Origin: Eledone cirrhosa
Lineage: Eukaryota
Reading direction: 5' to 3'
DNA length: 64,000 nucleotides
Assembly: GCA_964016885.1 (NCBI GenBank)
Contig: OZ024743.1
Span: 12,648,001 to 12,712,000 of the forward strand
Shown: piece after piece, positions 1 to 61,955 of the stretch
How positions within the stretch are numbered: the first letter of the stretch is position 1
Layout of the letters: every line of letters begins with the position of its first letter
Notes under the pieces: generated by a model
The model's input: only the letters and a program-made list of their open reading frames with translations
Databases searched by the model: none
Told to the model about the DNA's origin: nothing
Position numbers and translations under genes: made by a program

Positions 1-689
1 GTTCGAGAGAGGCTCTACAGACACGGGCGCCCGGGCAGGGATCCCTAAAAAAAGATTTGCCCTAGATGCGTGCGTCACGAAGAAACCGTTGCGCACGCAT
101 TGGTGCAATGTCCGGGCGTGGCTGATCTGTGGGGCTACGCCGAACGACTGCTGTCGCGGGTGGCGCCGATTAAATTGACCGCCGAGTCCGTGATGACAAT
201 CAAACCGCCTCCCCTCTTCACAAAGGAAGCAAAGGCGGTTTTTCTGTGCGTAATAGCCATGTTGAAAGAGGTTGTTTGGTGGACACGATTGAAAGGTCTG
301 AGGTCAGGCAACTTCCTCTCTGGCCATAGTCTGGTCTACTTCTTCCGATATCACTTCGGAAGAAGGATAAGAATGGAGAGAGAGGTGCTTGGCCACAGGC
401 AGTTTTATGAAAGGTGGGTGATAGTGGCGAGAATGGCTCGTGTAAATGGGCCTTCTCTGTATACCATCCTGTAGGTAAAGAAGTAAAGGAGAGGGGAGCA
501 CCTTCTCCATGTGCTCCCCGGGCAAAGGATTGCACACTTTTTCGGGGGTGTGTGCAACCCCCATCACGTCCCCTCCCTTTTGAGGTTATTTTCGATTATT
601 TTCATGTTACACCCTTTTTACTCGATTAAATGTAAAATCCCCCTTTGTATTTGTCCCTTCTTTTTATGCCTTTATGGTAAATAAAGAAA
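1..689 (+). mobile_element. 3' end of Tx1/L1-clade LINE (divergent subfamily): C-terminal Zn-finger region, 3'UTR, AATAAA, then (TCTA)n
   Basis: Translation CPRCVRHEETVAHALVQC...ARVNGPSLYTIL is homologous to the C-terminus of ORF2 at 43134-46571. In-frame TAA at 46-48, stop TAG at 472-474, AATAAA at ~680, TCTA repeats from 690. Confidence 0.92.
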
Positions 690-805
690 TCTATCTATCT
701 ATCCACACACACATATACGTATTACCACACATATACGTATTACCACACACACATATATGTATTAGAAGTGTGTATGAAGCATATACAATAATACACACAC
801 ACACA

Positions 806-11510: not shown

Positions 11511-11511
11511 T

Positions 11512-20114: not shown

Positions 20115-20117
<3 letters not shown>
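18376..20117 (+). mobile_element. Retrozyme-like non-coding element: 2.6 tandem copies of a 597-bp unit plus a 164-bp 5' inversion, in (TA)n
   Basis: Units start at 18540, 19137 and 19734 and differ at only a few bases. 18376-18539 is the reverse complement of 18927-19090. (TA)n on both sides. Confidence 0.85.
18759..18848 (+). ncRNA. Variant hammerhead (TTGATAA core); repeated at 19356-19445 and 19953-20042
   Basis: TCCTC-TTGATAA-GTCGGCA...TGCCAC-GAA-ACTACGTAGT-C-GAGGA: 5-bp stem I, 10-nt palindromic stem III, GUC triplet. Confidence 0.72.
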
Positions 20118-25789: not shown

Positions 25790-25851
<62 letters not shown>

Positions 25852-26128
25852 CATCAGACTATAGGTGAGGAAGATGAAAGACCAAGGGAGCACCCCTTCT
25901 CTGTGCTCCTAAGGAGAAGGGTTGCACACTTTTTTCGGGGGTGTGTGCGACCCCCCAAGGCGCCTCCTCTCTATTGAGGATTTTGTTATAAATTTTATTT
26001 TTTGTTATATCTTATTTTATTTTTATATTTTGTTATTGCCTCCTCCTTATTGAGGACGCCTTTTTGTGTAAACTCCCCCCTTTGTACTTGTCCCACTTTT
26101 GATGCCCTAGTGGCAAATAAAAGAAACA

Positions 26129-26129
<1 letters not shown>
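25852..26129 (+). mobile_element. Severely 5'-truncated Tx1 copy (3'UTR only) between (TCTA)n tracts
   Basis: Near-identical to the 3'UTRs at ~52105-52385 and ~46590-46836. TCTA repeats at 25789-25851 and 26130-26197. Confidence 0.92.
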
Positions 26130-26197
<68 letters not shown>

Positions 26198-29100
26198 CGA
26201 AGAAGATAGACGTGTTTTTGTTTCGCTCCTGCATTTTATCGGAATTTATTACGAGAAGCGGTAGGTTTGTTTAAGCTACTTGTTATTTGTTCTGTTTAAC
26301 CCCTCGCCTGGGACTGCAGACGTTGGTTAAAATAAATTTCGCCCCCTTTTGGAGCAAAATTTGATAGTTATAAGTTATCGATAAAAAGTCGTTTAGTGAC
26401 AATGCATGCTATTAACACGACGCATGCCACGCCCCCCAAGGAAAGTGATAGAGAGAAGGTAGCAGCACAACGCTGTAAGCCTTCCCTCCTCACTCCCGCA
26501 AAAGACACCACGGAATCAAAAGAAAAAATTGTGGAAATGGGTGAAAACCCCAAAAGTAACAATTACACAAACAAGAACAACAATGACAATAACAGCACAA
26601 CCAACAACAGCAACAATGACAATAACAACACAACCAACAACAGCAACAATGACAATAACAACACAAACAACAACAGCAATAATGACAACACCAACAAAGG
26701 AAAAAAGCAAGCCAACACGAATAGCAACAACAACAATGATAACAACACGAAAGAAAACGGACCCACAGATGCAGTCTCCTTCGCACAGGCGGTCCGAGAA
26801 ACGCAGACATACAAGGCACTGGACATCTCGAATGCCAAGAAACTGCTGAAAGAAGCAAGGAATTGTGTAAGTTTCGGGGAAGGTGGGGAATTCACAATTA
26901 CCTCCCCCGAAGAAAGTAGAAGGGACACAATCCTCAGGACCGTAATTTTTAGGACAGTTTCGAACGCGACTAGGAAACCGGCTCAATTGTCCCAAAGCGA
27001 AATTGAGCTGGTCCTAAGTAGTGCCTGGAAGGATATCGCTTTCATACAGAAAGGGAAACTGTATGGAAGTATATCTGTTTTAATGCAAGATGAATTGGCG
27101 GCACGGAAATATTCTGTGTCGCCAATTGTATCCAAAGCATACACCTTTTTCCCCACATATTTGGGGAAAAGAACTCAAAAGATAAGAATCTCGGGCATCG
27201 GGCCAAATGTGAGCATTTGGTGGGTGCCAACGGGATTCTTAGAAGATGAGGACACAATCCTTTCGATAGGCGAATCGACCGGAGGCGTATTCGGCGGCAA
27301 TAGCCTTGAAGTTCTGGATCAAATGAGACCAGAACGGATAGCAAGAATACCGCATGAAGTCGCCTTCATAAACATTTCTGTTGAGGGCAGGCGGCCTTCA
27401 TGCTACCACTGTTCAAGAAGTGGTCACTTGAGGGCTTCCTGTCCCCTTTTAAATGACCCCCCCCCCAAAAAAAAGACGCTTCTGCCCACCCCACACACAA
27501 CAACACATCAACAAAAATACAACAAACACACAGCCACCAGCACAAACAGAACAAACATCTCAAACAAAAAAACCCACCCCTCCCGAAAACATAACACATA
27601 CTACAAAACGCAAACACATACAAGAACAACAAACAAAAACAAACACAACACAACAAAAACAGTATAATATACATCAACACAAACAACAAAACAATTGTGC
27701 AAACAATAGACAAAGACCCTTCGGTGGAAACCGAAGGGAAAATGTTCACCAACGCGGCGACTAAACCGCATTTAAATATGATTAGGGTCCCAAGGGTCAC
27801 CTACGCAATGTTCAAACAGAACTTTCCCGAGGACGTGGGGAACCCCTGTACTAGACCTAGCAACCGCGTCCTCTTGAAATGTTTCCCCACCACCACCCCA
27901 GACACCCCTCCCCCACCAAACACCCCCACCCCACCACACACTGATGTCCCCACCACATCCCAAACCCCCACCCCACCAAACAACCCCGCCGACACCCCGA
28001 TGGAAATTGTGCAGCCTGGTCCCCAGGAGAAGGACAGGGAGGTGTCTCTTTTTTTCTCCACTCTAAACTCTTCACCACCAACATGGCTGTTATGAGAGTT
28101 GGATGTTTAAATGTGCGCGGCCTGGGGATATCCTGGAAGCAGGGCAAACTCTTAAATGACCTCAGGTCGCACAGAATGGATATGATAGCTATTTGCGAGT
28201 CCAGGATCAGCAGCGAGCACCAACTGGCCCCCATCTTCGATGACTTTGAGATCTATGCATCTCTCTGTCAGCCGGGGGTAGGGGCGGGTGGTCGTTCTGC
28301 TGCGAAAACACCTGGGCCTTGCAACACAGAAGTACACCTGTACCCGGAGGGCCAACTGGTGGTTCTAGACGTCGGCAGTAGTGAAGGTGGAGCCTTCAGG
28401 CTGGTGGCAGCGTATGCCCCATCTGGGACACCGCGACCGGACTTCTTCCAGCGCCTAAGACTTTTCTGGGAAGGTCTCGCTCCTTGCTTTTAGTGGGGGA
28501 CTGGAATGGTATCCTGGATGCACGTTGGGACTATGTAGGGGCATGTCCCGATAGAGTGGGGTGTAACAGCCTCAAACGGTTAATCGGCTGCCACTGTGGA
28601 CGTGGACTAATCTCAGGTCGTACCTAGATAGGTTCCTAGTTAGAAATAAGGATAGGGACATATTAAGCTGTCAACTAATATTCATGGTTAATTATTCAGA
28701 TCACAAGTTGGTGACCGGAGTGGTCAACCTTGATAGAACCCATAGACAAGGACTCGGTTACTGGAAGCTAAACTTGTCCTTACCGACAAACAAAGCTTAC
28801 AGTAAGCGGATTAGCACTCTAGTTAAGCAGCGGTTGACGGGGGCAATTGTCAACAGCAGGTGGTGGGGCTCTATCAAGGGAGAAATTAGAATAGAATCGA
28901 TAGGTTTTAGTCAGGAATTAGCATCAGATAGGAATAGAACTGAAAGGGAATTGATAGATAGAGTAGAAGAGGCGATTAGTAGTAGCAACGTGCCGGCGTC
29001 CTGGCGTCAAGAACGGCCCTAGACCAGTTCTTTGATGCGAAGCACGAGGGCTGCGTTGTCAGGAGTAAAATACGTGCTCTGGGTAACGAGGGAGCCAAAG

Positions 29101-31697
29101 CTGTTAGCTGGGCCCGAGTGACAGGAAAAAAGTGGAAAGAAGTCCACTATTCGGTCTTTGAAGGACCAGGATGGACGCGGGATCCTTGAACCTGAGCGGT
29201 TGTGCGCGGCCTTTCAACGGCGCTTTGCACGACTGTTCGGGAATGGCGGCGGGCCGGGTGAGGCCATCGGTTTTGGTCCATACCTCGACGGTCTGCCGCG
29301 GCTCTCGGACGGGGAGGCGAAGTCCTGCGAAAGGCCGATTTCAGCCGCTGAGATAGGGGAAGCGCTAAGCCAATGCGGCAAACGCAAATCTCCCGGTCTC
29401 GATGATCTACCATACGAACTTTATGTAGCGATGCCGGACTTGTTCTTCAATCTCCTCGAGGCGGTCTACTGCAACTGGCAACCGCACGGGAGAATTCCCA
29501 GTTCTGTGACCAAGGGCGTAGTCACGCTGGTGAGGAAGGACAAGAACAAGGGGGATGACATAGATAACTTCAGGCCCATAACTCTGCTAAACACACAGTT
29601 AAAGATTTTGGCCAAGGTGTTAGCGAAGAGGTTGGCGTTTGTCGTCGGGAACCTGGTGGGAGAAGCGCAGACATGCGCAATCCCGTCCAGGTCCATACAC
29701 GACAACCTCCACCTCATGCGATACATCGTAGAGAGGGTAGGTAACGAACCCGGCTTTGGTGGGGCTCTGATCAACTTGGGTCAATCTAAGGCGTTCGATA
29801 GGGTCGACCATCGGTACCTGGATGCGGTATTCGCGGCGGCAGGCTTCGGACCCGTTTTCAGGGGCTGGATTGCTGCAATGCACAGCAGCAACACCTGCTC
29901 GAGGGTCAAGGTGAACAGCTACCTCTCAGAGCCGTTCCAAATCGCGCGATTCATCCGACAGGGATGCCCTCTCTCCTCCCTTCTGTATGTGCTGGCTCTC
30001 GAGCTACTACTGCGGAAGTTGGAGCTGTTGCAGGGAATCCCCTTGGAACTGGGATTGCGGAAAGCGGTGTCGGCCTACGCCGATGACGTGACAGTAATGG
30101 TGTCGTGCGCCTCGGAAATCGAGCAGATCGGCACCTTACTGGAGGAATACGAAAGGTTTACAGCAGCCAAGCTGAACCGGGACAAGTCCGTCGGTTTGCA
30201 ACTCGGATCGTGAAGAGGCAAACCGATGCCCTCCGACGGCGTCGTCGGACGCTGGACGGAGGGACCGGTGAAGCTGCTTGGAACTGGTTCGGACCGGACC
30301 TCCAGGTGGAGAAAAACTGGGACGAGGTAACGGGCAGGGTGTTTGCACTCGCCCAGAAGTGGGCCGAGTGCAAACTATCCCTGAAAGGTCGAGCGGAGGT
30401 GGCGAACACTTATATAGCGTCCGTCATCTACTACCGCTTGACCGTCGTGGCTTGCCAAGCGAAAACGCTCGCCAAAATGGAGCGCGCGCTTTTCCGATTC
30501 CTTTGGAAGAAGCGGGCCCCTTTGGTGAGAAGATCCATCTGCTGTCAACACCCTTCGAACGGAGGGCTGGGGATGCTGTGGCTGACGATGCGTAGACACG
30601 CATTAAGGCTACGGCACCTCCAGATGTTCCTCACCGGTGAGCCGGTGTGGGCCCCTTTTGTGAGGCGAGCCTTTCCGAGACTCGTCTCACTCACCGAGCT
30701 GCAATCCTGGGTCAAGCAAAGACCGAGAAAAATGGGCGACTGGTACATTGAATGTGCCCAGGCGCTCACTGCCCTCTGGCAAGCGGATCCGGCAATCAGT
30801 GGAGACTCAACCTCAACATTCTATAGAGGGTTGGTGCGCAGCAAGTGCGACGACGCTCTCGGAGAGGCTCTGGGCATGGAGGAAGACGAGCTAGCCAGTC
30901 TGTTCGGTAGGACGTTTGGCCCAGGACTGATGGACAACTTCCAAAAGTCCCTGGCTTGGCAGTGCTACCGAGGAGCTCTACCCGCTCGGGACAAGCTCTA
31001 CAGACACGGGCGCCCGGGTAGGGACCCCTCGAAGAAGATCTGTCCGAGATACGTGCGTGACGAGGATACCGTCGCGCACGCATTCGTACACTGCCCGGGC
31101 GTTGCTGACCTGTGGGGATATTTGGAACGACTACTGTCGCGGGTGGGACCAATCCGGTTGACCACCGAGTACATTGTCACGATCAAACCGCCACCCCCTT
31201 CAAAAACGAAGGAGAGGCGGTTTTCCTCTGTGTGATAGCTATGGCGAAAGAGGTTGTATGGTGGACGAGGTTGAAAGGGCTGAGGTCAGACACTTTTCTC
31301 TCCGGCCAACAACTGGTCCTTTTTTTCAAGTACCATTTTAGAAGAAGGATCAGAATGGAGAGAGAGGTGCTCTACCCCAGCAAGTTTTATGAAAGGAGGG
31401 TGAAAGTGGCGAGAATGGCCCGAGTGAATGGGCCTTCTCTCTATATCAGCCTGTAGGTGAGAGAGGAGAAGAAAGAGGAGAGGAAGGGAGCATCCGCTCT
31501 TTGTGCTCCTGAGGAGGTGGGTTGCAGATTTTTTTCGAGGGTGTGTGCGTCCCACGTCAACGCCCCCTCCCTATTGAAGACTTCGATTGTTGAATTTTAT
31601 TTGTTATATGTTTTTACACGTCCTTTGAAATGTATGTAACCCCCCCCCTGTATTTGTCCCAATCGTTGATGCCCTGGTGGCAAATAAATAAAAAGTT
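26198..31697 (+). mobile_element. Full-length but frameshifted Tx1-clade LINE (ORF1 with CCHC; ORF2 APE-RT-ZnF)
   Basis: ORF1 from ATG 26402 with CYHCSRSGHLRASC. ORF2 from 28083 in pieces with LNVRGL, YSDHKLV, QGCPLS and YADD. (TCTA)n on both sides. Confidence 0.93.
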
Positions 31698-31808
31698 ATC
31701 TTTCTATCTATCTATCTATTCACACACACACACCACACACACATACACGCACACAAACATACATACACACACACACGCACACACACATACACACACGCAA
31801 ACACACAC

Positions 31809-35280: not shown

Positions 35281-35660
35281 ATATATTAGTAAAAGGAAAA
35301 GAAAATGCTGACAAATTTTTCCCAGTGAAAAATAGTTTAATTAGGAATAAGTAAAAATTAGTAATAAGTATTGGTTAGTATTCAGTTTTAGTTTTAAGTT
35401 TTTACCGGTTGCGCATTTCTAATGCTTTTCAAAAATAATTTTGAGATAGAGCGCCCGTGATGTTTGCTCTAATCTGATTAGAGCAAACATCACGGGCGCT
35501 CTATCTCAAAATTATTTTTGAAAAGCATTAGAAATGCGCAACCGGTAAAAACTTAAAACTAAAACTGAATACTAACCAATACTTATTACTAATTTTTACT
35601 TATTCCTAATTAAACTATTTTTCACTGGGAAAAATTTGTCAGCATTTCCTTTTCCTTTTA

Positions 35661-35669
<9 letters not shown>
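35281..35669. repeat. 194-bp-arm palindrome (1-nt centre at 35475, one mismatch) in (TA)n with a degenerate hammerhead-like motif
   Basis: Centre ...GCTCTAATC-T-GATTAGAGC...; TTGAAAA-GCAT(TAGAA)ATGC-GCA-ACCGGT-A at 35518-35547. Confidence 0.9.
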
Positions 35670-38178: not shown

Positions 38179-38355
38179 ATTAGGCGACCCAGGTCCATCT
38201 CTTCTCCCCCTTCTTCCTGAATAGGCTGTTTCCGATGTAGAGCCGTCTCGTTTCCTAAATATTATATACTTTATATTTATGTACAAAATACTATGTTTCT
38301 ATAACGATATATGGCTCTTTCTCATTCTATTGAATTATATATATATACACACATA

Positions 38356-39951: not shown

Positions 39952-40148
39952 TGTTATCTCTTTCTCTTAATTTCGAGTATATTTTTTTGACCGGCCACCT
40001 TCCTGGTGGCAAGGTTATAAAAGAAAAGAAATTGTCATCCTTTGAATCGCAAGAATGTTTTGCAAATTTTGAAGGTGCCAGCTATCGCAGCCATTTGTAG
40101 ACTATGAATTAGGGAGCTGCGCTCTTTGTCCGCAAATCCAAGTCAGTC
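39952..40148 (-). mobile_element. ~200-bp 3' fragment of the R4/Dong-like family, in (TACA)n
   Basis: Near-identical to 1124-1320; (TATG)n on both sides. Confidence 0.9.
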
Positions 40149-40179
<31 letters not shown>

Positions 40180-40792: not shown

Positions 40793-41315
40793 GTGTAGAA
40801 ATCATATGTGTGTGCTTATATGTGTATATTGCTGCAACCTGCTACTTATCCGTCTTCCTTGTTGTTTTTATTTCCTTCTTTTGTCTCCCCATACTTTTCC
40901 TCATTCTCTCTACATCATCCATCTTCTTACACATTCATCCTATTAAACTCCTTAAGTCGTTGGAGCAAATATAAATGTTTTTATTGCTTTGAACATATAT
41001 CCTTGCTTTGTAGAAGTAATTGACTTTGCTGCTGGGCTATAAGCTCGCATTACAACTTTATCGTCTCGACCAAACATCTATCTATCTATCTATTTATCTC
41101 TGGGATGGACACACGCGTATAACTTGCTGAGTAAGTTCTGTTTAAATTTCTATAGAAATTCTTGTCTGATAACTTTAATTTTTGTACCATTTTGTAGAGG
41201 GACTGCCAGGTCAAACTTTGATCTGGTCAGTCTCTCAAAATATTCTACGCCTTTAGGCGAAATAGTTAAACAAAAAAAAAAAGTTTTTTCTTGTTGAAAA
41301 GTCAATATTTTTTAA

Positions 41316-43109
41316 ATGGCCGAAGCTTCTTCACCAAAATTCGAAGGAGGAAAGGGGAAGATGAACTTACAGCTTCCCCCTGCCACTGTCACAGTAGCAG
41401 AGGTCAAGAAGAAAGGTCAGCCAGAGGAAGAATTCTCTCCACCTGTTAACCGACAACTTGACGTTGCCATGGCAACAACCCAAAGAACCAGCAGCAACAG
41501 CAACAACAACAACAATGCGACGGACGAAAACAACACCAATAACAATAACAATAACAACAACAACAAGACCAATAACGGTGACAACAACAACAATGATAAC
41601 AACAACACCACCAACGACAACAACAACACAAACAAACAAAATTTCTCCTTCGCCGAGACGACAAGGAAAACCCTCGACTATCTGCCAGTAGATATAACAA
41701 AAGCGAAGGAGCTACTGGCGGATGCGAAAAAATATATAGTGTACGGAGAAAATGGTTCATTCACAATCCATTCCCCACCGGAACTAAAAAGCCAGAGACT
41801 CCTAAACACGGTCATGTTTAGGACAATCTCGAACAAAAGTAAAAAACCAGCTCAACCATCACAGAGCGAGATAGAGCTGGTTTTAAAAGACGTCATGAAG
41901 GACATCACCTTCATTCAGAAGGATAGACTCTACGGGAGTCTATCCATTCTCATGAAGGACAGGGACACAGCAGTGAAACTGTCCATCAAACCAATCACAT
42001 CCACCGCATACACCTTCTACCCTATGTACATGGGTAGAAGAACACAAAAAATAAAAATCCACACCATCCTGCCGATTATGGACATATGGTGGGTTTTGAC
42101 AGGTTTTCTGGACCTGGAGGATGACATGCTGGTGTCCATGGGAAAGGCATCGGGTGACGCGTTCAGTGGAACGAGCCTCGAACTTGTAGTTCAAATGAGG
42201 CCCGAAAGGATCGCCCAGATCCCTGAACGCGTCATACTGGATGATCTAACCTTCATCAACATTACCGTTGAGGGTAGACGGCCCTCGTGTTACCTCTGCG
42301 GAACCAGAGGTCACCTGAGGGCTGTCTGTCCCCAACTTAATAAGAAAACCCCAATCCTGCCTACACCACCAACAACTGCACAACCAACACAATCACCACA
42401 ACTACCACTACAAAAACAACCACCACAGCTCAAACCAAAACAAAACAATGTCCAACCCATCCCCTCCACTCAAAAAACAAAAACAATTTCCAAAACACCC
42501 GTACCGCAAACACAACCCGAAAATATACCCCTCCCCTCCAACGCGGAAGATGACCCTAGTTCGTCGTCAGACGAGGAGGAGCACTTCCACACAATCAAAA
42601 GAAAAAAAAGAAAACACACCTCAGACACACAAATGAAAAAAACCCCTCCCCAAAACATAACACTGACACCAACACAAAAGAGCTCACAACAACAGCAAAC
42701 AAAAAACACAACACAAAAACAAAAACATGCATACACATACATAAACACAAGAAACAAAAAACTGTTAAACATTGTGTACAACAACAATCTAATAAAAACA
42801 CAAGGGCCTAACTTCACCCAGGCAGGGGATTTCCCCCACCTCAAAATGATTAAGGCCCCACAGGACACCTATAAAACTTTAAAAAACAATTTTAAAGAGG
42901 ACGTGGGTCCCCCCTGCGTCGGGCCCATTAACCGCGTCCTCCTAAAAAACTATCCCACCCCCTCCCCAAACACCCACACAACTCCAAGCTCCCCAACCAC
43001 ACAACACACTGATGCCCCCACACTTCCACAATCCACCACCCCACCCAACAACCCATCCCCCACCCTAATGGAAATTGTGCAGCCCGATACCCGGGACGCA
43101 GAGAGGTAA
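41316..43109 (+). CDS. LINE ORF1p (597 aa): poly-Asn tract, CCHC zinc knuckle, Pro/Thr/Gln-rich tail
   Basis: CYLCGTRGHLRAVC; homologous to ORF1 at 26402; lies directly upstream of ORF2. Confidence 0.9.
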   Translation: MAEASSPKFEGGKGKMNLQLPPATVTVAEVKKKGQPEEEFSPPVNRQLDVAMATTQRTSSNSNNNNNATDENNTNNNNNNNNNKTNNGDNNNNDNNNTTNDNNNTNKQNFSFAETTRKTLDYLPVDITKAKELLADAKKYIVYGENGSFTIHSPPELKSQRLLNTVMFRTISNKSKKPAQPSQSEIELVLKDVMKDITFIQKDRLYGSLSILMKDRDTAVKLSIKPITSTAYTFYPMYMGRRTQKIKIHTILPIMDIWWVLTGFLDLEDDMLVSMGKASGDAFSGTSLELVVQMRPERIAQIPERVILDDLTFINITVEGRRPSCYLCGTRGHLRAVCPQLNKKTPILPTPPTTAQPTQSPQLPLQKQPPQLKPKQNNVQPIPSTQKTKTISKTPVPQTQPENIPLPSNAEDDPSSSSDEEEHFHTIKRKKRKHTSDTQMKKTPPQNITLTPTQKSSQQQQTKNTTQKQKHAYTYINTRNKKLLNIVYNNNLIKTQGPNFTQAGDFPHLKMIKAPQDTYKTLKNNFKEDVGPPCVGPINRVLLKNYPTPSPNTHTTPSSPTTQHTDAPTLPQSTTPPNNPSPTLMEIVQPDTRDAER

Positions 43110-43133
43110 GTGCCTTTTCTCTTCACCACCAAC

Positions 43134-46100
43134 ATGGCTATGCTAAGAGTAGGCTGTTTAAATGCGCGTGGCCTGGGCTCAACCTGGAAGCAAGCAATGC
43201 TTCTAAATGACCTCAGGTCACAACGTATAGATGTGATGGTTATTTGCGAGGCCCGGATCAGCAATGTGCGACAGCTGGCCCCCACCTTTGATGACTTTGA
43301 GATGCACGCATCTCTCTGTCAGCCCGGAGGTGGGGGTGGAGTTGTCGTTCTGCTGCAAAAACATCTGGGTCTCGCAACACAGATGGTACATTTGGACCCG
43401 GAGGGTCGACTAGTTGTTCTGGACCTTGGCAGTGGTAAAGGCGGAGCGTTTAGGTTGGTAGCCGCCTACGGCCCTTTCGGGTCAATGCGGCCGGACTTCT
43501 TCCATCGTCTGGAGACTTTTCTAGGGACGTCCCGCTCCTTGCTATTAGTGGGGGACTGGAATGGTATCCTAGATGCACGCTGGGACTACGTAGGGGCCTT
43601 CCCCGATAGAGAGGGGTGTAATAGCCTCAAAGGGTTAATCGGTCGATTTGACCTGGCCGATAGATATCGACTAGATTTTCCGACTGCGCCAACCTGGACT
43701 TGGGCAAATCGTAGCGGATCATCTAGGTCGTACCTAGATAGGTTCTTAGTTAGAATTAAGGATAAGGACTTTTTAAGTTGTCCAAAAATGCGCATGGTTG
43801 GCTATTCAGACCACAAATTAGTGACCTGCATGGTCAACCTTGACAGAACTCATAGACAGGGCCCCGGTTACTGGAAGCTCAACTTGTCCTTGCCGGCAAG
43901 TAGAGCCTACAGGAATCGGATTAGTACGTTAGTTAAGGAACGGTTGACTGGAGCGATCGTCAACAGCAGGTGGTGGGTATCTCTAAAGAGAGAGATTAGA
44001 GTAGTCTCGATAGAATTTAGTAAGGTTCTAGCTGCGGATAGGAATAGGAAGGAAAGGGAGCTAATAGATAGAGTAGAAGAGGCAATTAGAAGCGGCGACG
44101 TGGCCAGAGTGCTAGCGTCGAGAACGGCTTTGAGCCAGTTTTTCGACGCGAAGCACGAAGGCTGCGTTGTCCGAAGTAAAATACGTGCTCTAGGGAACGA
44201 GGGGACCAAAGCTGTTAGCTGGGCCCGCGTGACAGAGGCCAACAGTGGAACTAAATCCACCATCCCGTCTTTGCGAGACCTGGATGGACGGGCGATTCTT
44301 GAGCCTAAGCAGATGTGTGAGGCCTTTCAAAGGCACTTTGCCCGACTGTTCGGGAGGGGCGGGGAGCCGGTTGGGAACGTGGACTTCGGTCCATACCTCG
44401 ACGGCCTGCCGCGCCTCTCGGACAGGGAGGCGAAGTCCTGCGAGGAGCCGATTTCGGCCGCTGAGATAGAGGACGTGCTGAGCCAATGCGGCAAACGCAA
44501 ATCCCCGGGTCTCGATGGTCTTCCTTACGAATTATATCTAGCTATGCCGGACTTGTTCCCCGATCTCCTCGAGGCGGTCTACTGCAACTGGCAACAGAAC
44601 GGGAGAATTCCCTGTACTGTGACCAAGGGCGTAGTCACGCTAGTGAGGAAGGACGAGAACAAGGGGGACGAAATAAGTAACTTCAGGCCCATAACTCTGC
44701 TAAATACAGAGTTACAGATTTTGGCCAAGGTGCTAGCAAAGAGGTTGGCGCTTGTCGTGAGCAACCTGGTGGGAGATGCGCAGACATGCGCTATCCCGTC
44801 CAGGTCCATCCATGACAACCTCCACCTCATGCGATACATCATAGAGAGGGTTGGGAACGAACCCGGCTTTGGTGGGGCTCTGATCAACTTGGATCAATCT
44901 AAGGCGTTCGATAGGGTCAACCATGGTTACCTGGATGCGGTGCTAGCGGCGGCAGGCTTCGGACCCGTTTTCAGGGGCTGGATCACTGCTATGCACAGCA
45001 GCCGCATCTGCTCTAGGGTCAAGGTGAACGGCTACCTCTCGGAGCCGTTCAAAATCGCGCGGTCCATCCGACAAGGGTGCCCTCTCTCCTCCCTTCTGTA
45101 TGTGTTGACTCTCGAGCTACTACTGCGGAAGTTGGAGTTGTTGCAGGGCATCCCTTTGGAACCGGGATTGCGGAAAGCGGTGTCGGCCTACGCCGATGAC
45201 GTGACAGTAATGGTGTCGACGGCCTCCGAAATCGAGGCGGTCGGCACCTTACTGGAGGAGTACGAAAAGTTCACAGGGGCTAAGCTGAACCGGGACAAGT
45301 CGATCGGTTTGCAACTCGGCACGTGGAGGGGCAGACCGATGCCCTCCGATGGCGTCGTCGGACGCTGGACGGAGGGCCCGGTGAAGTTGCTCGGGGTCTG
45401 GTTCGGACCGGACCTCCAGGTGGAGAAAAACTGGGCGGAGGTTACGAACAGGGTGTTTGCACTGACCCAGAAGTGGGCCAGTTGCAAACTATCCCTGAAA
45501 GGTCGGGCGGAGGTGGCGAACACCTACATAGCGTCCGTCATCTACTACCGCCTGACCGTAGTGCCCTGCCCAAGGGAAACCCTCACCAAGATGGAGCGCG
45601 CGCTCTTCCAATTCCTTTGGAAGAGGCGGGCTCCTATGGTGAGGAGATCCATCTGCTGTCAACACCCTTCGAAAGGAGGGCTGGGGATGCCGTGGCTAAT
45701 GATGCGTAAACACGTATTAAGGCTACGGCACCTCTACGTATTCCTCACCGGACAACCGGTGTGGGCCTCGTTTGTGAGACGAACCTTTCCCAGACTCGTC
45801 TCACTCACCGAGCTGCAATCCTGGGTCAAGCAAAGACCGAGAAAACTGGGCGCCTGGCACACTGAGTGTGCCCAGGCGCTCACCGCCCTCTGGCAGGCGG
45901 ATCCGGTTATCAGTGGAGACTCCACCGCAACATTCTATAGAGGGCTGGTACGCAGCAGGTGCGACGACGCCCTCGGAGAAGCCCTAGACATGGAGGAGGA
46001 CGAACTGGCCGGCCTGTTCGATAGGACATTCAGCCCGGGACCTATGGACAACTTCCAGAAGTCCCTGGCCTGGCAGTGCTACCGAGGAGCTTTACCCGTT

Positions 46101-46571
46101 CGAGAAAGGCTCTACAGACACGGGCGCCCGGGTAGGGACCCCGCCAAAAAGATCTGTCCCAGATGCGTGTGCGACGAGGAAACCGTTGCACACGCATTGG
46201 TACACTGCTCGGGCGTAGCCGATATGTGGGGCTATGTCGAACAACTGCTGTCAAGGGTGGGACCGATCCGGTTGACCACCGAGTCTATTGTAATGATCAA
46301 GCCGCCTCCCCCCTTCAAAGATGAAGCAGAGGCGGTGTTTCTGTGCGTAATAGCCATGGCAAAAGAGGTTGTATGGTGGACGCGTCTGAAAGGACTGAGG
46401 TCAGGCACCTTTCTCTCTGGCCAACAACTGGTCCGTTTCTTCCGATATCATTTCGGAAGAAGGATCAGGATGGAGAGAGAGGTGCTGCACCCCAGTCGTT
46501 TTTATGAAAGGTGGGTGAAAGTGGCGAGAATGGCCCGTGTGAATGGGCCTTCTCTTTACATAAGCCTGTAG
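43134..46571 (+). CDS. LINE ORF2p: AP endonuclease, reverse transcriptase and C-terminal Zn finger (Tx1/L1 clade)
   Basis: LNARGL, GDWN, SYLDRFL, YSDHK, GYWKLN, KSPGLDGLP, NFRPITLLN, LDQSKAFDRV, QGCPLS, YADD, GGLG, CPRC..ETVAHALVHC. Start placed at the ATG in CCAACATGG, not the GTG at 43110. Confidence 0.96.
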   Translation: MAMLRVGCLNARGLGSTWKQAMLLNDLRSQRIDVMVICEARISNVRQLAPTFDDFEMHASLCQPGGGGGVVVLLQKHLGLATQMVHLDPEGRLVVLDLGSGKGGAFRLVAAYGPFGSMRPDFFHRLETFLGTSRSLLLVGDWNGILDARWDYVGAFPDREGCNSLKGLIGRFDLADRYRLDFPTAPTWTWANRSGSSRSYLDRFLVRIKDKDFLSCPKMRMVGYSDHKLVTCMVNLDRTHRQGPGYWKLNLSLPASRAYRNRISTLVKERLTGAIVNSRWWVSLKREIRVVSIEFSKVLAADRNRKERELIDRVEEAIRSGDVARVLASRTALSQFFDAKHEGCVVRSKIRALGNEGTKAVSWARVTEANSGTKSTIPSLRDLDGRAILEPKQMCEAFQRHFARLFGRGGEPVGNVDFGPYLDGLPRLSDREAKSCEEPISAAEIEDVLSQCGKRKSPGLDGLPYELYLAMPDLFPDLLEAVYCNWQQNGRIPCTVTKGVVTLVRKDENKGDEISNFRPITLLNTELQILAKVLAKRLALVVSNLVGDAQTCAIPSRSIHDNLHLMRYIIERVGNEPGFGGALINLDQSKAFDRVNHGYLDAVLAAAGFGPVFRGWITAMHSSRICSRVKVNGYLSEPFKIARSIRQGCPLSSLLYVLTLELLLRKLELLQGIPLEPGLRKAVSAYADDVTVMVSTASEIEAVGTLLEEYEKFTGAKLNRDKSIGLQLGTWRGRPMPSDGVVGRWTEGPVKLLGVWFGPDLQVEKNWAEVTNRVFALTQKWASCKLSLKGRAEVANTYIASVIYYRLTVVPCPRETLTKMERALFQFLWKRRAPMVRRSICCQHPSKGGLGMPWLMMRKHVLRLRHLYVFLTGQPVWASFVRRTFPRLVSLTELQSWVKQRPRKLGAWHTECAQALTALWQADPVISGDSTATFYRGLVRSRCDDALGEALDMEEDELAGLFDRTFSPGPMDNFQKSLAWQCYRGALPVRERLYRHGRPGRDPAKKICPRCVCDEETVAHALVHCSGVADMWGYVEQLLSRVGPIRLTTESIVMIKPPPPFKDEAEAVFLCVIAMAKEVVWWTRLKGLRSGTFLSGQQLVRFFRYHFGRRIRMEREVLHPSRFYERWVKVARMARVNGPSLYISL

Positions 46572-46835
46572 GTGGAAAAGAGGAAGGAACGAGGGAGCAC
46601 CCCCTCTCTGTGCTCCTGAGGAAAAGGGTTGCACACTTTTTTCGGGGGTGTGTGCGACCCCCCAAGGCGCCTCCTCTCTATTGAGGATTTTGTTAAAAAA
46701 TTTTATTTTTTGTTATATCTTATTTTATTTTTATATTTTGTTATTGCCTCCTCCTTATTGAGGACGCCTTTTTGTGTAAACTCCCCCCTTTGTACTTGTC
46801 CCACTTTTGATGCCCTAGTGGCAAATAAAAGAAAC

Positions 46836-46897
<62 letters not shown>

Positions 46898-49800
46898 CCA
46901 CACCTTAAACTTATAGGGGTTTCTATGGAAACCTATAAAGACCTGAAAATTAAATTTTCACAGGACGTGGGCAACCCCTGCCACAAACCCATCAACCGCG
47001 TCCTGTTGAAAGGTTTCCCCACCCCACCCAACACCCCATCCAGCACCCAAATGGAGATTGAACAACCCGATCTCCAGGAAACGAAAAGGTAAGTGCACCT
47101 TTCGTCCTTTTTCTCCAACTTTTCTTCACCAACATGACTGGTTTACGAGTTGGAACCGTGAATGTGCGTGGCCTAGGGATGCCCTGGAAACAGGGCCAAC
47201 TTTTAAACGACCTTAGGTCACACAGTATGGATGTGATAGCCATTACCGAGTCCAGAATCCACAACAGGCAGCAACTAACCCCCATCTTCGACGACTTTGA
47301 GATCTACGCATCTCTCTGTCAGCCAGGAGGTGGAGGTGGAGTGGCTGTTATGTTTCGGAAGAACCTGGACGTCGGAGTACAGCAAGTACACTTGGACCCG
47401 GAGGGTAGACTGGTAGTCCTAGACGTGAACAGTATCGGAGGTAGAGCCTTCAGACTGGTGGCCGTTTATGCCCCGACCGGGCAATCGCAATCACGGCCAG
47501 ACTTCTTTAAGCGTCTAGAGTCTTTTCTGGGAACGTCTCGCTCCTTACTTTTAGTGGGGGACTGGAATGGTATCCTAGATGCACGATGGGACTATGTGGG
47601 AGCATGTCCCAGTAGAGCGGGGTGCAACAGCCTCAAAACTTTAATCGGCCAATTCCAACTGGCCGATAGGTATCGACTGGATTTCCCGACTGCACCACAG
47701 TGGACGTGGGTAAACCGCAGTGGGACATCTAGATCGTATTTAGATAGGTTCTTCATTAGAGAAAGGGACAAGGATATGTTAAGCTGTCCACGAATGCACA
47801 TGGTTGCCTATTCAGATCACAAGTTAGTAGTCTGCTTAGTCAACCGTGATAGAATACATAGACAGGGTCCCGGATACTGGAAGCTGAACGTGTCGTTGCC
47901 GGCACGTAAAGCTTACAGTGAACGGATAAGTAAACTAGTCAAGCAACAGTTAACGGGAGCCATCGTCAACAATAGATGGTGGTACTCTCTCAAGAAAGCA
48001 ATTAGAATAGAATCGATAGGGTATAGCAGAGAGTTAGCCTTAGAGAAAAACAGAATAGAAAGAGAACTAGTAGCCAAGGTAGAGGAGGCACTTAGAAGTG
48101 GCAACGCGGCTAGAGTGTTAGCGTCGAGAACGGCACTGGACCAGTTCTTCGATGCGAAACACGAAGGCTGCGTGGTCAGAAGCAAAACACGTGCTCTAGG
48201 AAACGAAGGAGCGAAAGCTGTCAGCTGGGCCCGAGTGGCGGAGGCAAAAAGTGGCAACAAGTCCACGATTCGGTCTTTGAAAGACCAAAACGGACGCGTG
48301 CTACTTGACCCCAAGCAAATGTGCGCGGCCTTTCAGCGGCACTTTGCGCGACTGTTTGAGCAGAACGACGGTGAGCCGAACGGGGCAATGGACTTTAGTT
48401 CATACCTCGACGGCCTGCCGCGTCTCTCGAACACGGACGCCGAGTTCTGCGAAAGACCGATCACGGACACTGAGATACGGGACGCTCTGGGCCGCTGCGG
48501 GAAACGCAAGTCACCCGGTCTAGATGGTCTACCCTACGAATTTTACATAGGCATGCCGGACTTGTTCTCTGGCGTCCTCGAAGCCGTCTACTGCAATTGG
48601 CAGCAGAACGGGAGAATTCCCAGTTCTGCAGGCAAGGGCGTAGTAACGCTGATCAGGAAAGACGAGAACAAGGGGGACGAAATTAACAACTTCAGGCCCA
48701 TAACTCTGCTCAACACAGAGTTAAAGATTTTGGCCAAGGTTGGCCCTTGTCGTCGAGAACCTGGTAGGGAAAGCGCAAACGTGTGCAATCCCGACCAGGT
48801 CCATACACGACAACCTCCACCTCATGCGATACATCATAGAGAGGGTGGGTAGTAAACCCGGCTTCGGTGGGGCTCTGATCAACTTGGATCAGTCTAAGGC
48901 ATTCGATATCGTCGACCATCGATACTTGGAAGCGGTTCTCAAGGCGGCCGGTTTCGGTCCCGTGTTCAGAGGATGGATCGAGGCGATGCACACCAGCATC
49001 TGCTCGAGGGTCAAGGTGAACGGCTACCTATCGGAGCCGTTCGCAATCACGCGTTCCATTCGACAGGGATGCCCTCTCTCCTCCATTCTGTATGTATTGA
49101 CTCTAGAGCCACTACTGCGGAAATTGGAGCTGTTGCAGGGCATCCCCCTAGAACCGGGACTGCGCAAAGCGGCGTCGGCTTATGCCGACGACGTGACAGT
49201 AATGGTGTCGAGCACCTCGGAAATCGGGGTGATCGGCAACATACTGAAAGAATACGAAACGCTGACGGGAGCAAAACTAAACCCAGACAAGTCTGTCGGT
49301 TTGCAACTCGGTACGTGGAGAGGCAAACCGATGACATCCGACAGCGTCGTTGGACGCTGGACGGACGGACCGGTGAAATTGCTCGGGGTCTGGTTCGGTC
49401 CAGACCTCCAGGTGGAGAAAAACTGGAACGAGGTCACGGCCAAGGTGTTTGCACTCACTCAGAAGTGGGCAGAGTGCAAACTGTCCTTGAAAGGTCGAGC
49501 GGAGGTGGCGAACACTTTCATAGCGTCCGTCATCTACTACCGCTTGACTGTCGTGCCTTGTCCCCGTGAACACCTCGCCAAGATGGAACGCATGCTCTTC
49601 CAGTTTCTGTGGAAGAAGCAGGCTCCGCTGGTGAGGAGATCCGTCTGCTGTCAGCACCCTTCCAACGGAGGGCTGGGAATGCCGTGGCTGATGATGCGCA
49701 AACATGCGCTGAGGCTGCGGCATCTCCAGGTATCCCTCACCGACCCCCAACCGGTGTGGGCACCGTTTGTGAGACAGGCTTTCCCACAGCTCGTCTCGCT

Positions 49801-50800
49801 AACGGAGCTGCAGTCCTGGGTGAAGAAAAGACCGAAAACGATTGGCGCCTGGCACATTGAATGCGCTCAGGCGCTCACAGTCCTCTGGCAAGCGGGCGCA
49901 GCAATCAGTGGAGACTCCACTTCGACATTCTATAGAGGGATTGTACGTTACAAGGGCGACGACGTGCTCGGAGAGACTCTGGGCGTCGAAGACGATGAGC
50001 TCACCAGTATGTTTGGTAGGACTTTCCGCCCGGGACCTATGGACAACTTCCAGAGGTCCCTGGCCTGGCAGTGCTACCGAGGAGCTCTACCGGTTCGTGA
50101 CAAGATCTACAGGCACGGACGCCCTGGCAGGGATCCTACCAAGAGGACGTGTCCAAGATGTGCGCAGGACATTGAAACAGTTCTGCACGCAATTGTACAC
50201 TGCCCGGGCGTAAGCGACCTGTGGAACTATGCAGAACAACTGCTGTCGCGTATGGGACAAATACAGTTGACTGCCGAGTCCATAGTAAGGATCAAACCGC
50301 CAGACTCTTTCAAAAACGAAAGAGAGGCGGTTTTCCTCTGTACGGTGGCTATGGTGAAAGAAGTTATATGGTGGACGAGGTTGAGAGGACTGAGGACAGA
50401 TGCCTTTCTCTCCGGACAACAATTGATTCCATTCTTTAAGTATCACTTTAGAAGGAGAATCAGGGTGGAGAGAAAGGCACTGCACCCCAGTAAATTTACT
50501 GAAAGGTGGGTGAATGAAGCGAAAATGGCCCGAGTGATTGGTCCTTCTCTGTTTATAAGCCTGTAGGTTGAGGAAGAGAGCAAAAGGAAGAAAGGAGCAC
50601 TTGCACAACACGCTCCTTGAGTTGAGGGTTGTTCTATCGACGGGGTATTAAACAACCCATTTGTGGCGCCTCCCCCCTATTGGGGATTTCGATTGTTGAA
50701 ATTGTTTGTTTTTATATTTTTTACACGACTGTATGTAAAATCCCCGGCATGTCTTTGTATTGTCCCCTTTCTTGTTGCGCCCTTGTGGCTAATAAAGAAA
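46898..50800 (+). mobile_element. Tx1 copy of a second subfamily, truncated in ORF1; ORF2 47134-50566 with one frameshift near 48740
   Basis: ORFs 47134-48852 and 48740-50566 join across a short deletion in LAKV(LAKR)LAL. Distinct 3'UTR. Confidence 0.94.
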
Positions 50801-50814
50801 TCTAACTATCTATC

Positions 50815-51438
50815 GTGCACGCATTCATACACTGCCCGGGCGTCACTGACCTGTGGGGCTATGTAGAACGACTATTGTCGCGGGTGGGACCAATCCGGTT
50901 GACCACCGAGTCCATTGTCATGATCAAACCGCCACCCTCCTTCAAAAACGAAGGAGAGGCGGTTTTCCTTTGTATGATAGCTATGGCGAAAGAGGTTGTA
51001 TGGTGGACAAGGTTGAAAGGGCTGAAGTCAGACACCTTTCTCTCCGGCCAACAACTGATTCTTTTTTTCAAATACCACTTTGGAGGAAGAATCAGGATGG
51101 AGAGAGAGGTGCTGTACCCCAGCAAGTTTTATGAAAGGTGGGTGAAAGTGGCGAGAATGGCCCGAGTGAATGGGCCTTCTCTCTATATCAGCCTGTAGGT
51201 TGAGGAAAAGGAGGAGGAGAGGAAAGGAGTACAAGCTCTTCGTACTCCTGGAGATGAGGGTTGCACATTTTTTTTCGGGGGTATGTGTTACCCATATAAA
51301 CTGTCTCCCTCTATTGGGGAAAATCGACTAACTTTTAAATTCCATCTGTGATAACATTTTACACGTTTTTATTGTATGTAAACTTCCCCCTTTGTATTTG
51401 TCCCCTTCTTTTGTGCCCCTGTGGCTAATAAAGAAATA

Positions 51439-51439
<1 letters not shown>
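50815..51439 (+). mobile_element. 5'-truncated Tx1 copy, third subfamily
   Basis: Near-identical to 54210-54833; TCTA on both sides. Confidence 0.93.
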
Positions 51440-51478
<39 letters not shown>

Positions 51479-52385
51479 GTCATTCTATAGAGGGCTGGTG
51501 GTTAGCAGGTGCGACGACGCCCTCGGAGAAGCCCTAGGCATGGAGGAAGACGAACTGGCCAACCTGTTCGGTAGGACATTCAGCCCGGGACCCATGGATA
51601 ACTTCCAGAGGTCCCTGGCCTGGCAATGCTACAGAAGGGCTCTGCCCGTTCGAGAAAGGCTCTGCAGACACGGGCGCCCGGGTAGGGACCCCTCGAAAAA
51701 GATCTGTCCCAGATGCGTGTGCGACGAGGAAACCGTTGCACACGCATTGGTACACTGCTCGGGCATTGCCGATCTGTGGGGCTATGTCGAACAACTGCTG
51801 TCAAGGGTGGGACCGTCCGGTTGACCACCGAGTCTATTGTAACGATCAAGCCGCCTCCCCTCTTCAAAAACGAAGGAGAGGCGGTGTTTCTGTGCGTAAT
51901 AGCCATGGCGAAAGAGGTTGTATGGTGGACGCGTCTGAAAGGACTGAGGTCAGACACCTTTCTCTCTGGCCAACAACTGGTCCGTTTCTTCCGATATCAT
52001 TTCGGAAGAAGGATCAGGATGGAGAGAGAGGTGCTGCACCCCAGCCGTTTCTATGAAAGATGGGTGAAAGTGGCGAGAATGGCCCGTGTGAATGGGCCTT
52101 CACTCTACATCAGACTATAGGTGAGGAAGAAGAAAGACCAAGGGAGCACCCCTTCTCTGTGCTCCCGAGGAGAAGGGTTGCACACTTTTTTCGGGGGTGT
52201 GTGCGACCCCCCAAGGCGCCTCCTCTCTATTGAGGACTTTGTTATAAATATTATTTTTTGTTATATTTTATTTTATTTTTATATATTGTTATTGCCTCCT
52301 CCTTACTGAGGACGCCTTGTTTTGTAAACTCCCCCCATTGTACTTGTCCCACTTTTGATGCCCTGGTGGCAAATGAAAGAAACAT
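51479..52385 (+). mobile_element. 5'-truncated Tx1 copy related to 41099-46836
   Basis: ORF2 C-terminus with a frameshift and the same 3'UTR type; TCTA on both sides. Confidence 0.93.
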
Positions 52386-52403
52386 ATCTATCTATCTATC
52401 TAT

Positions 52404-53195
52404 GAGACTCTGGGCGTCGAAGACGATGAGCTCACCAGTCTGTTTGGTAGGACTTTCCGCCCAGGACCTATGGACAACTTCCAGAGGTCCCTGGCCTGGC
52501 AGTGCTACCGAGGAGCTCTACCCGGTTTGTGACAAGATCTACAGGCACGGACGTGTCCAAGATGCGCGCAGGACATTGAAACAGTCCTGCACGCAATTGT
52601 ACACTTCCCGGGCGTAACCGACCTGTGGAACTATGCAGAACAACTGCTGTCGCGTATGGGACAAATGCAGTTGACTGCCGAGTCCATAGTAAGGATCAAA
52701 CCGCCAGCCTCTTTCAAAAACGAAAGAGAGGCGGTTTTCCTCTGTACGGTGGCTATGGTGAAAGAAGTTATATGGTGGACGAGGTTGAGAGGACTGAGGA
52801 CAGATGCCTTTCTCTCCGGACAACAATTGATTCCCTTCTTTAAGTATCACTTTAGAAGGAGAATCAGGGTGGAGAGAGAGGCACTGCACCCCAGTAAATT
52901 TACTGAAAGGTGGGTGAATGAAGCGAAAATGGCCCGAGTGATTGGGCCTTCTCTGTTTATAAGCCTGTAGGTTGAAGATGAGAGCAAAAGGAAGAAAGGA
53001 GCACTTGCACAACACGCTCCTGGAGTTGAGGGTTGTTCTATCGACGGGGTATTAAACAACCCATTTGTGGCGCCTCCCCCCTATTGGGGATTTCGATTGC
53101 TGTAATTGTTTGTTTTTATATTTTTTACACGACTGTATGTAAAATCCCCGGCATGTCTTTGTATTGTCCCCTTTTCTTGTGCGCCCTTGTGGCTA

Positions 53196-53196
<1 letters not shown>
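52404..53196 (+). mobile_element. 5'-truncated Tx1 copy, second subfamily
   Basis: Matches 49974-50792 with an internal deletion. Ends at GGCTAA with no AATAAA, directly into TCTA. Confidence 0.93.
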
Positions 53197-53285
<89 letters not shown>

Positions 53286-53289
53286 CTAT

Positions 53290-54833
53290 TTTCACAGGAG
53301 CGAAGCTGAACCGGGACAAGTCCATCGGTTTGCAACTCGAATCGTGGAGAGGCAAACCGATGCCTTCCGATGGCGTCGTCGGACGCTGGACGGAAGGACC
53401 GGTAAAGCTACTCGGGGTCTGGTTTGGTCCGGACCTCCAGGTGGAGAAGAACTGAAACTAGGTGACGGCCAAGGTGTTTGCACTCACCCAGAAGTGGCCC
53501 GAGTGCGAACTATCCTTGAAAGGTCGAGCGGAGGTGGCCGAACACTTTTATAGCGTCCGCCATCTACTACCGCTTGACCGTCGTGCCTTGTCCAGCCAAA
53601 ACGCTCACCAAAATGGAGCGCGCGCTCTTCCAATTCCTTTGGAAGAGGCGGGCTCCTTTGGTGAGAAGATCCATCTGCTGCCAACACCCTTCTAAAGGAG
53701 GGCTGGGGTTGCCGTGGCTGACGATGCGCAAACACGCGCTCAGGCTGCGGCATCTCTACGTATTTCTCACCGGACAACCGGTGTGGGCCTCGTTCGTGAG
53801 GCGAGCCTTCCCACGACTCGTCTCGCTGACCGAGCTGCAGTCCTGGGTCAAGCAAAGACCGAGGAAAATGGGCGACTGGCACATCGAATGTGCTCAGGCG
53901 ATTACAGCCCTCTGGCAGGCGGATCCGGCGATCAGTGGAGACTCCACTTCGTCATTCTATAGAGGGTTGATCCGCAGCAAGTGCGACGACGCGCTCGGTG
54001 AAACTCTAGGCGTAGAGGAAGATGAACTGGCCAGTCTGTTCGGTAGGACCTTCAGCCCGGGACCGATGGACAACTTTCAAAAGTCCCTGGCCTGGCAGTG
54101 CTACCGAGGAGCTCTACCAGTTCGAGACAAGCTCTACAGACATGGGCGCCCGGGCAGGGACCCTGCAAAAAAGATCTGTCCGAGGTGCGTACGAGACGAA
54201 GAAACCGTCGCGCACACATTCATACACTGCCCGGGCGTCACTGACCTGTGGGGCTATGTAGAACGACTATTGTCGCGGGTGGGACCAATCCGGTTGACCA
54301 CCGAGTCCATTGTCATGATCAAACCGCCACCCTCCTTCAAAAACGAAGGAGAGGCGGTTTTCCTTTGTATGATAGCTATGGCCAAAGAGGTTGCATGGTG
54401 GACAAGGTTGAAAGGGCTGAGGTCAGACACCTTTCTCTCCGGCCAACAACTGATTCTTTTTTTCAAATACCACTTTGGAAGAAGAATCAGGATGGAGAGA
54501 GGGGGGCTGTATCCCAGCAAGTTTTATGAAAGGTGGGTGAAAGTGGCGAGAATGGCCCGAGTGAATGGGCCTTCTCTCTATATCAGCCTGTAGGTTGAGG
54601 AAAAGGAGGAGGAGAGGAAAGGAGTACAAACTCTTCGTACTCCTGGAGATGAGGGTTGCACATTTTTTTCGGGGGTATGTGTTACCCATATGAACTGTCT
54701 CCCCCTATTGGGGAAAATCGACTAATTTTTAAATTGCATTTGTGATAATATTTTACACGTTTTTATTGTATGTAAACTTACCCCTTTGTATTTGTCCCCT
54801 TCTTTTGTGCCTCTGTGGCTAATAAAGAAACAT
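53290..54833 (+). mobile_element. 5'-truncated Tx1 copy, third subfamily
   Basis: ORF2 3' part (53574-54593); TCTA at 53197-53289 and 54834-54897. Confidence 0.93.
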
Positions 54834-54840
54834 ATCTATC

Positions 54841-54897
<57 letters not shown>

Positions 54898-61088: not shown

Positions 61089-61211
61089 TTTATAAATATA
61101 TATATATATATATATGTGGGAGTTCTATTTAAATTGTTGGGATACAACAAGCAAATATTTTTATAACTGATATAAAGCACTCAACAAATTATAAATAACA
61201 AATTGGAGTAA

Positions 61212-61579
61212 AATACGATATATTAACAAATGGAAACTATATTTATAAAACCATATTTATTTCATTATACATATTTCAAGGACACCAAGTTAAATTATGG
61301 TGTGCTTTCATCAGATAAAATATAATATAGAGCAGTTTTAAAAATAAATATTGACATACCCTTAAAGAATGCGACCATTTCTGTTGGAAGCTCCCGGAAG
61401 CTTCCAACAGAAATGGTCGCATTCTTTAAGGGTATGTCAATATTTATTTTTAAAACTGCTCTATATTATATTTTATCTGATGAAAGCACACCATAATTTA
61501 ACTTGGTGTCCTTGAAATATGTATAATGAAATAAATATGGTTTTATAAATATAGTTTCCATTTGTTAATATATCGTATT
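61212..61579. repeat. 184-bp-arm palindrome in (TA)n; PLE-derived
   Basis: Centre 61395/61396 in GGAAGCTCCCGGAAGCTTCC with one mismatch. Left arm extends ~96 bp to (TA)n. Related fragment at 10693-10765. Confidence 0.95.
61470..61532 (+). ncRNA. Type I minimal hammerhead (mirror copy at 61259-61321)
   Basis: ATTTTAT-CTGATGA-AAGCACACCA(TAATTTAACT)TGGTGTCCTT-GAA-ATATGTAT-A-ATGAAAT, overlapping AATAAA. Confidence 0.83.
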
Positions 61580-61955
61580 ATATATATATATATAGTTACA
61601 TACATAATTACGAGCTGGTTACTACCGCCTGACTTTAGTCTGTAATTTTCGATTCTTAACTAGTGGATTTGGGTAGTATTAAGAGTTATAATTAACTTCG
61701 ACATTAATGCTAAATTTTATATTAGTTTAACATATGGATATGTGGGTTTGCTTAAGTGAATGTGTAGCTTTGTAAATATTATATTCAAAGGTAGTTTTGG
61801 CAAATTGCATATACGTAGGTTATTTAGGTTACTGGATGAAGTTAATTATTATTGCTACAGAATGTAAGTTTTAATTACGGCTTTTATCTGTGATTGAAAA
61901 ATGTATTCATGGTTAATTATACTAAAGTAAACCTTTGTACAGAAGCGTCGTACCA

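Follow-up and report, generated by a model that had tools for sequence, protein, structure and literature searches.

TATCT-directed insertion of a young L1-group LINE family in Eledone cirrhosa and a sister lineage whose changed target may be inherited through flanking DNA

Several long interspersed nuclear elements (LINEs) of the Tx1 group are described as inserting into microsatellites, namely Kibi at (TC)n, Koshi at (TTC)n and crocodilian families at (TTCC)n or (TTTC)n (PMC4494074, PMC3812793). Pairing between element RNA and target is reported to aid priming in L1, SART1, R1Bm and R2Ol (PMC3649969, PMC7265360, PMC6530143). The snap-velcro account of human L1 priming has a nick at 5'-TTTT/A-3', a need for about four paired bases and a tolerance of compensated mismatches (PMC3649969), while in R1Bm, SART1Bm and R2Ol a read-through or internal part of the RNA is described as pairing with the primer strand and helping to start reverse transcription (PMC7265360, PMC6530143). 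In Octopus vulgaris, 13 recently active L1-Tx1 families have been annotated (PMC13282606); the words "GATA" and "target" are absent from the main text of that paper, whose supplement or repeat library may catalogue families without giving a target. Here we analyze a stretch of 64,000 nucleotides from the 3.0-Gb genome of Eledone cirrhosa (GenBank assembly GCA_964016885.1, contig OZ024743.1, positions 12,648,001 to 12,712,000 of the forward strand), hereafter the window, in which a sequence-only reading had recognized a head-to-tail stack of LINEs on (TCTA)n, the other strand of (GATA)n.

The stack (41094-54834) comprises copies E1 to E6, joined by TCTA sequence in the subfamily order A, B, C, A, B, C; all six same-strand copies and three subfamilies of the sequence-only reading were located there, on the plus strand. 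E1 (41094..46838) is a full-length subfamily A copy with both open reading frames (ORFs) open. Its ORF2 (43134..46571, 1145 aa) contains an APE endonuclease (aa 23-227), a reverse transcriptase (aa 512-755) and a weak C-terminal zinc-binding region, with the Pfam domains Exo_endo_phos and RVT_1 both above cut-off. The best match in the PDB is human L1 ORF2p (E 1.9e-48, as against 5e-18 for R2), with homology spanning aa 8-855. The element is an APE-type non-LTR (long terminal repeat) retrotransposon of the L1 group, and the 5' truncations and target-site duplications expected of L1-group LINEs are both present. The narrower label of Tx1 clade is likely, the membership demonstrated here being that of the L1 group; no named Tx1, Kibi, Koshi or Keno sequence appeared among the homolog searches and the cluster look-up, which did not cover Repbase. 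Tx1 elements are described as having an ORF1 of the RRM/CCHC type rather than Transposase_22 (PMC5203782). E1 ORF1 (41316..43109, 597 aa) has a single CCHC knuckle, below the Pfam cut-off (zf-CCHC, E 0.051), and low-complexity spacers, with neither Transposase_22 nor RRM matched. As to RNA structure at the 3' end, eight ends gave only a hairpin of three pairs, with no compensatory change. As a separate observation, eight copies (L157, L159, L160, L163, L165, L171, L172 and L173) have an A-type 3' part at 99% identity and a different 5' part (88-97% overall), and represent chimeric families that swap the 5' untranslated region and ORF1.

Each of the six copies in the stack inserted independently, and the family to which they belong is young and high in copy number. 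The last 600 nt of each of the six copies is 98.0-99.7% identical to the nearest fetched dispersed copy, whereas the same-subfamily pairs within the stack are 93.2, 93.6 and 96.8% identical (70-82% between subfamilies). Each copy thus has a closer relative elsewhere than in the stack, which argues for independent insertion, as had been proposed, and not for segmental duplication. Eighteen full-length A copies from 20 fetched regions, compared together with E1, differ by 0.9% on average and retain an open ORF2 in 11 cases; having been selected as the best matches to E1, they represent the young end of the family. The left flank of the stack is single-copy in the genome, and in contigs of a more divergent run both flanks are covered, but in separate records.

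The target was defined from all subfamily A ends in the genome that fit exact 3'-end patterns (n=3,479). NN+TATCT follows in 2,956 of these (85%), in place of the (TC)n or (TTC)n of Kibi and Koshi, and NN+TATATA in a further 294. In 20 arbitrary 10-kb stretches TATCT starts at 0.16% of positions and TATATA at 1.44%, so that the occurrence of TATCT after A ends is far beyond chance. On contig 1, TATCT is next in 26 of the first 30 A ends and in 21 of the first 30 B ends. Of these copies, taken in order of position, 14 of 30 in A and 15 of 30 in B have at least three TATC units downstream, which are proportions above the 20% of flanks in one repeat that Kojima requires of a microsatellite-specific LINE (PMC4494074). 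As about half of the copies have no real repeat downstream, the target is a motif of 5-6 nt more than a repeat, and the earlier view of (GATA)n as such being the target gives way to one in which GATA repeats are a dense supply of TATCT motifs. Two single copies, L129 and L014, are followed by CCTA-type sequence in place of TCTA.

For a view of both junctions, 332 raw ends in fetched loci were reduced to 191 by removing duplicates and ends whose 5' end lay outside the sequence; this set is enriched for the junction types searched for, and some 5' junctions in older copies are possibly miscalled. Of 106 truncated TATCT-type copies, 67 have at least three TATC units just upstream (background 0.11%), and in 36 of these 67 no family member precedes the repeat. 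An upstream repeat in the opposite, GATA orientation is found at none of the 191 junctions, in agreement with the strand-specific insertion that had been suggested. The 42 informative target duplications measure 7-21 nt (median 14), poly(A) is present at none of the 191 junctions, and the elements have no repeat tail; the repeat is therefore a target and not merely a tail, as the sequence-only reading had maintained. Its further proposal that insertions regenerate their own landing site is borne out by 38 of the 106 truncated TATCT-type copies, which have another member of the family no more than 200 nt upstream. At TATCT sites ATCT is preceded by T in all 18 informative cases. On the A tree, the two bases that come next to the conserved end follow descent (13 changes, as against 28.0 on shuffling).

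Full-length copies at non-TCTA sites, such as L159 (in a short TA run), L224/L225, L371, L384 and L055, carry a CTAT-repeat head that separates the element from the duplication and is likely to be RNA-borne; full-length copies hence seed new landing pads. This bears on the argument that TCTA upstream of the first element proves it to be a target. Such TCTA is indeed seen in both stacks of the window, but because full-length copies deposit a head of their own, the TCTA before E1 is no proof of a pre-existing repeat, and the argument holds from the truncated copies instead. The sequence before E1 (plus strand, 41077..41100), which consists of (TCTA)4 in a run at 41077-41092 and a short TATC-phase head, is likely part target duplication and part RNA-borne head. 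The presence of this head on full-length copies, together with the A, B, C, A, B, C order, is what could be cited for TCTA being a mere element tail or for the stack being a duplicated A-B-C block. We regard either as very improbable: copies at non-repeat sites show clean duplications and no TCTA tail, and, as regards a block, the truncation points differ, as do the identities of the in-stack pairs, and closer relatives lie elsewhere, as noted above.

Subfamily B also bears on how the target is chosen. When 29 dispersed B copies were chosen by identity alone, five were found to end in TC+AATA. Four of these five extend to the informative sites, and all four share two substitutions; at the more 3' of the two sites the derived base is missing from all 17 TCTA-type rows that extend to it, the copy in the window included. 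Across the genome the B pattern gives 2,099 ends, with TCTA next in 1,276 and TCAA in 129. Of the TCAA ends, 28 of 30 and, in a later set, 37 of 40 read AAT(A/G) outside TCTA repeats, with 20 further examples; the first two A's are fixed by the search pattern, whereas the bases that follow and the base before the site are free. A pyrimidine occupies that preceding position in all 20 duplications of one set and in 20 of 21 of another. Of the AAT copies, 37 of 43 carry a derived synonymous allele that occurs in 0 of 21 TATCT copies; for these counts, TCTA copies sharing the same ends were collapsed into one, which removed L239. On a tree of 50 B rows the target label changes three times, as against a shuffled mean of 14.7, and none of 1000 shuffles gave so low a value. 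These copies define a sub-lineage, B', which lands at Y^AATAT outside TCTA repeats while encoding the same endonuclease as B. B' copies are often located in satellites containing CAATAT (L194-L196, L208 and L214-L222), and four copies in L214-L217 have apparently been amplified along with the satellite.

B and B' are about 99% identical, with about six linked sites over the whole element, and no linked difference exists between seven B' and six B copies in ORF2 aa 1-245. The target has therefore not changed along with the endonuclease in this sequence comparison, and the idea of a GATA-specific APE that sets the target does not explain B', which uses Y^AATAT with that region unchanged. The target is likely set by more than the endonuclease; given two lineages so close in sequence that share this domain and yet use separate motifs, the site is probably chosen in part by pairing of RNA that carries copied flank sequence. 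The family as a whole lands at TATCT in one orientation with a duplication of about 14 nt, and we consider it rather probable that the motif results from a loose nick combined with pairing of the nicked strand with flank-derived RNA.

Several observations weigh against this account. Outside the endonuclease two protein changes are linked to B', namely D932Y towards the C terminus of ORF2 (29 of 35 AAT copies, 0 of 19 TATCT copies) and a single ORF1 residue that falls in low-complexity sequence (4 of 5 versus 0 of 3). It is conceivable that specificity resides in protein only, with the ORF2 protein reading TATCT and B' having switched through D932Y or the linked ORF1 change. Subfamily A retains D932, and subfamilies with endonucleases at 73% identity keep a single target, both of which fit such a proposal; endonuclease-set specificity is moreover the textbook model (PMC4494074), and in other LINEs an exchange of endonucleases is reported to carry the specificity along with it (Takahashi and Fujiwara 2002, as cited in PMC4494074). 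We nevertheless judge it unlikely. Six of the 35 AAT copies keep D, including the older long copy L263, and the TCTA copy L239 has Y, although these exceptions could be recombinants; the endonuclease itself lacks any linked change. L384 presents a further difficulty: this full-length copy retains both D932 and the endonuclease unchanged, shares one B' allele and ends in TC+AATCT, so that its junction has switched while D932 is intact. Such a copy fits an order in which the flank changed first, and suggests a path from TCTATCT through TCAATCT to TCAATAT, with the flank change preceding the protein change. On the unfavorable side also stand the low branch support of the B tree, which has no starred branch, and the AAT copy L244, which groups with a TCTA copy and thus suggests that B-type RNAs may not need a matching flank to arrive at AAT sites. 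The switch is, furthermore, a single, unreplicated event. A candidate second switch, of A to (TA)n, was rejected (18 changes versus a shuffled mean of 16.1, with no lineages), and the A copies in (TA)n are near-match landings.

A different possibility is that another LINE family, one with an AT-rich target, supplies the protein that mobilizes B' RNAs in trans. Numerous LINE families are active in the genome, and ORF1 is frameshifted in the full-length B' copies observed; but the B' copies L225, L226, L229 and L258 have an open ORF2 of 1148 aa, the 3' end is common to B and B', so that a helper should move both, and most B' sites are not (AAT)n repeats. We hold this to be improbable.

Pairing of flank-derived RNA can be laid out as a series of steps, in which nicking, read-through and pairing are what we infer. 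The endonuclease would nick the primer strand loosely at 5'-T/R-3' (GAT/A on the GATA strand), a single rule that fits both lineages, given the T before ATCT and the pyrimidine before AAT. Polyadenylation takes place downstream of an AATAAA signal, and here no more than about 10 nt separate this signal from the end of the element; transcripts would therefore likely end inside the flank, transcription having continued through the terminal AATAAA. Reverse transcription would then begin where 4-6 read-through nucleotides pair with the primer, and this pairing would select among nicks. A copy located before TATCTA would direct its progeny to TATCTA, each insertion handing on its motif, and the lineage that goes to Y^AATAT would descend from a copy that had inserted before AATAT. 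The duplication of the site and the CTAT head of full-length copies would renew the landing pad and so give rise to head-to-tail stacks. In its strongest form this implies that the target is inherited via flanking DNA and not via protein, with one endonuclease serving two lineages (TATCT and AATAT) through a few transcribed flank bases, an off-target landing founding a new specificity, and the RNA 3' end being able to redirect insertion; we see this stronger form as evenly poised between being right and wrong.

Compared with the described systems, the family shares with Kibi, Koshi and the crocodilian Tx1 elements the position of an L1-group APE-type LINE at microsatellites, and the sequence-only reading agrees with PMC4494074 on the (TC)n and (TTC)n targets of Kibi and Koshi. 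TATCT or (GATA)n is absent from the target lists given in those descriptions, and, as far as the descriptions go, Kibi and Koshi are also set apart by the short motif, the many off-repeat sites and the same-endonuclease sister with another motif seen here. With human L1 the family shares a homologous ORF2 and duplications of similar length, and the proposed T/R nick resembles the 5'-TTTT/A-3' step (PMC3649969); it differs in lacking poly(A), in its CCHC-type ORF1 and in that the flank, and not a tail, would supply the sequence for pairing. In the accounts of R1Bm, SART1Bm and R2Ol the protein sets the site and pairing makes its use more efficient or more accurate, whereas here pairing appears to change the site, and to do so heritably along a natural lineage. 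A literature search found neither a GATA-targeting LINE nor a flank-inherited switch, with Repbase, subscription papers and supplements outside its scope. The GATA family joins the known microsatellite-targeting LINEs, to whose list the GATA target by itself is a modest addition, and the new part is the target's likely inheritance through the flank. A change of target in LINEs is usually ascribed to a change of the endonuclease, and the nearly identical B/B' pair makes an alternative testable. If correct, it would explain the origin and drift of microsatellite-targeting families and their self-building stacks, and would offer an insertion preference set by RNA.

Within the stack, all on the plus strand, E1 is followed by a (TCTA)14 junction (46839..46894) and by E2 (46895..50800), a 5'-truncated subfamily B copy with a frameshifted ORF2 that served as reference in the B/B' comparison. 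The next junction (50801..50814) is an imperfect TCTA repeat of 14 nt, so that the statement that every copy is bounded by (TCTA)n holds for most junctions and falls short at this one. The truncated subfamily C copy E3 (50815..51440) and a (TCTA)9 junction (51441..51476) lead to E4 (51477..52386), a truncated copy of an A sub-branch that is 93.2% identical to E1 and 98.5% to a dispersed copy. After a (TCTA)4 junction (52387..52402) comes E5 (52403..53196), a truncated copy of a B sub-branch with the usual 3' end minus its last 8 nt; it joins the repeat via a 2-nt match (53190-53200), as if reverse transcription had started inside the RNA. An interrupted (TCTA)n junction of about 23 units (53197..53288), the truncated subfamily C copy E6 (53289..54834) and a terminal interrupted (TCTA)n (54835..54897, its TCTA run ending at 54894) complete the array.

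The second stack and the further copy ending near position 690 in the sequence-only reading are both present. The former (25792..31719, plus strand) has the order (TCTA)15, a 279-nt A copy (25852-26130), (TCTA)16, a long degraded copy of a further subfamily (about 26195-31702), (TCTA)4 and then (CA)n. Its left flank (25400-25791) is an old RTE-like reverse transcriptase fragment, as judged by eye, 77% identical to other copies and ending at the TCTA run; a continuation of this fragment past the stack was looked for and not found. The latter is the 3' end of an element belonging to another subfamily, ending at 689 and followed by (TCTA)3 (1..701, plus strand).

Other repeats in the window include a minus-strand LINE (1126-4436) with a restriction-like endonuclease motif, R4/Dong-like by eye, flanked on both sides by (ATGT)n, and a 195-nt copy (39955-40149), 97% identical and again with ATGT units on both sides; this is possibly a second microsatellite-targeting family. 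A degraded reverse transcriptase element on the minus strand (36179-38298) is RTE-like by eye. Near-perfect palindromes of 310-380 nt at 99-100% identity occur at 8323-8690, 35281-35669 and 61209-61582, and an inverted pair (34378-34583/35037-35231) lies between (TA)n runs. Units of about 597 nt are repeated at 99% identity in 18426-20117, along with a short inverted piece, and a dispersed SINE-like (short interspersed nuclear element) repeat of 110-185 nt, 74-96% identical among copies, is found at 4547-4729, 11508-11689, 16586-16702 and 63468-63939.

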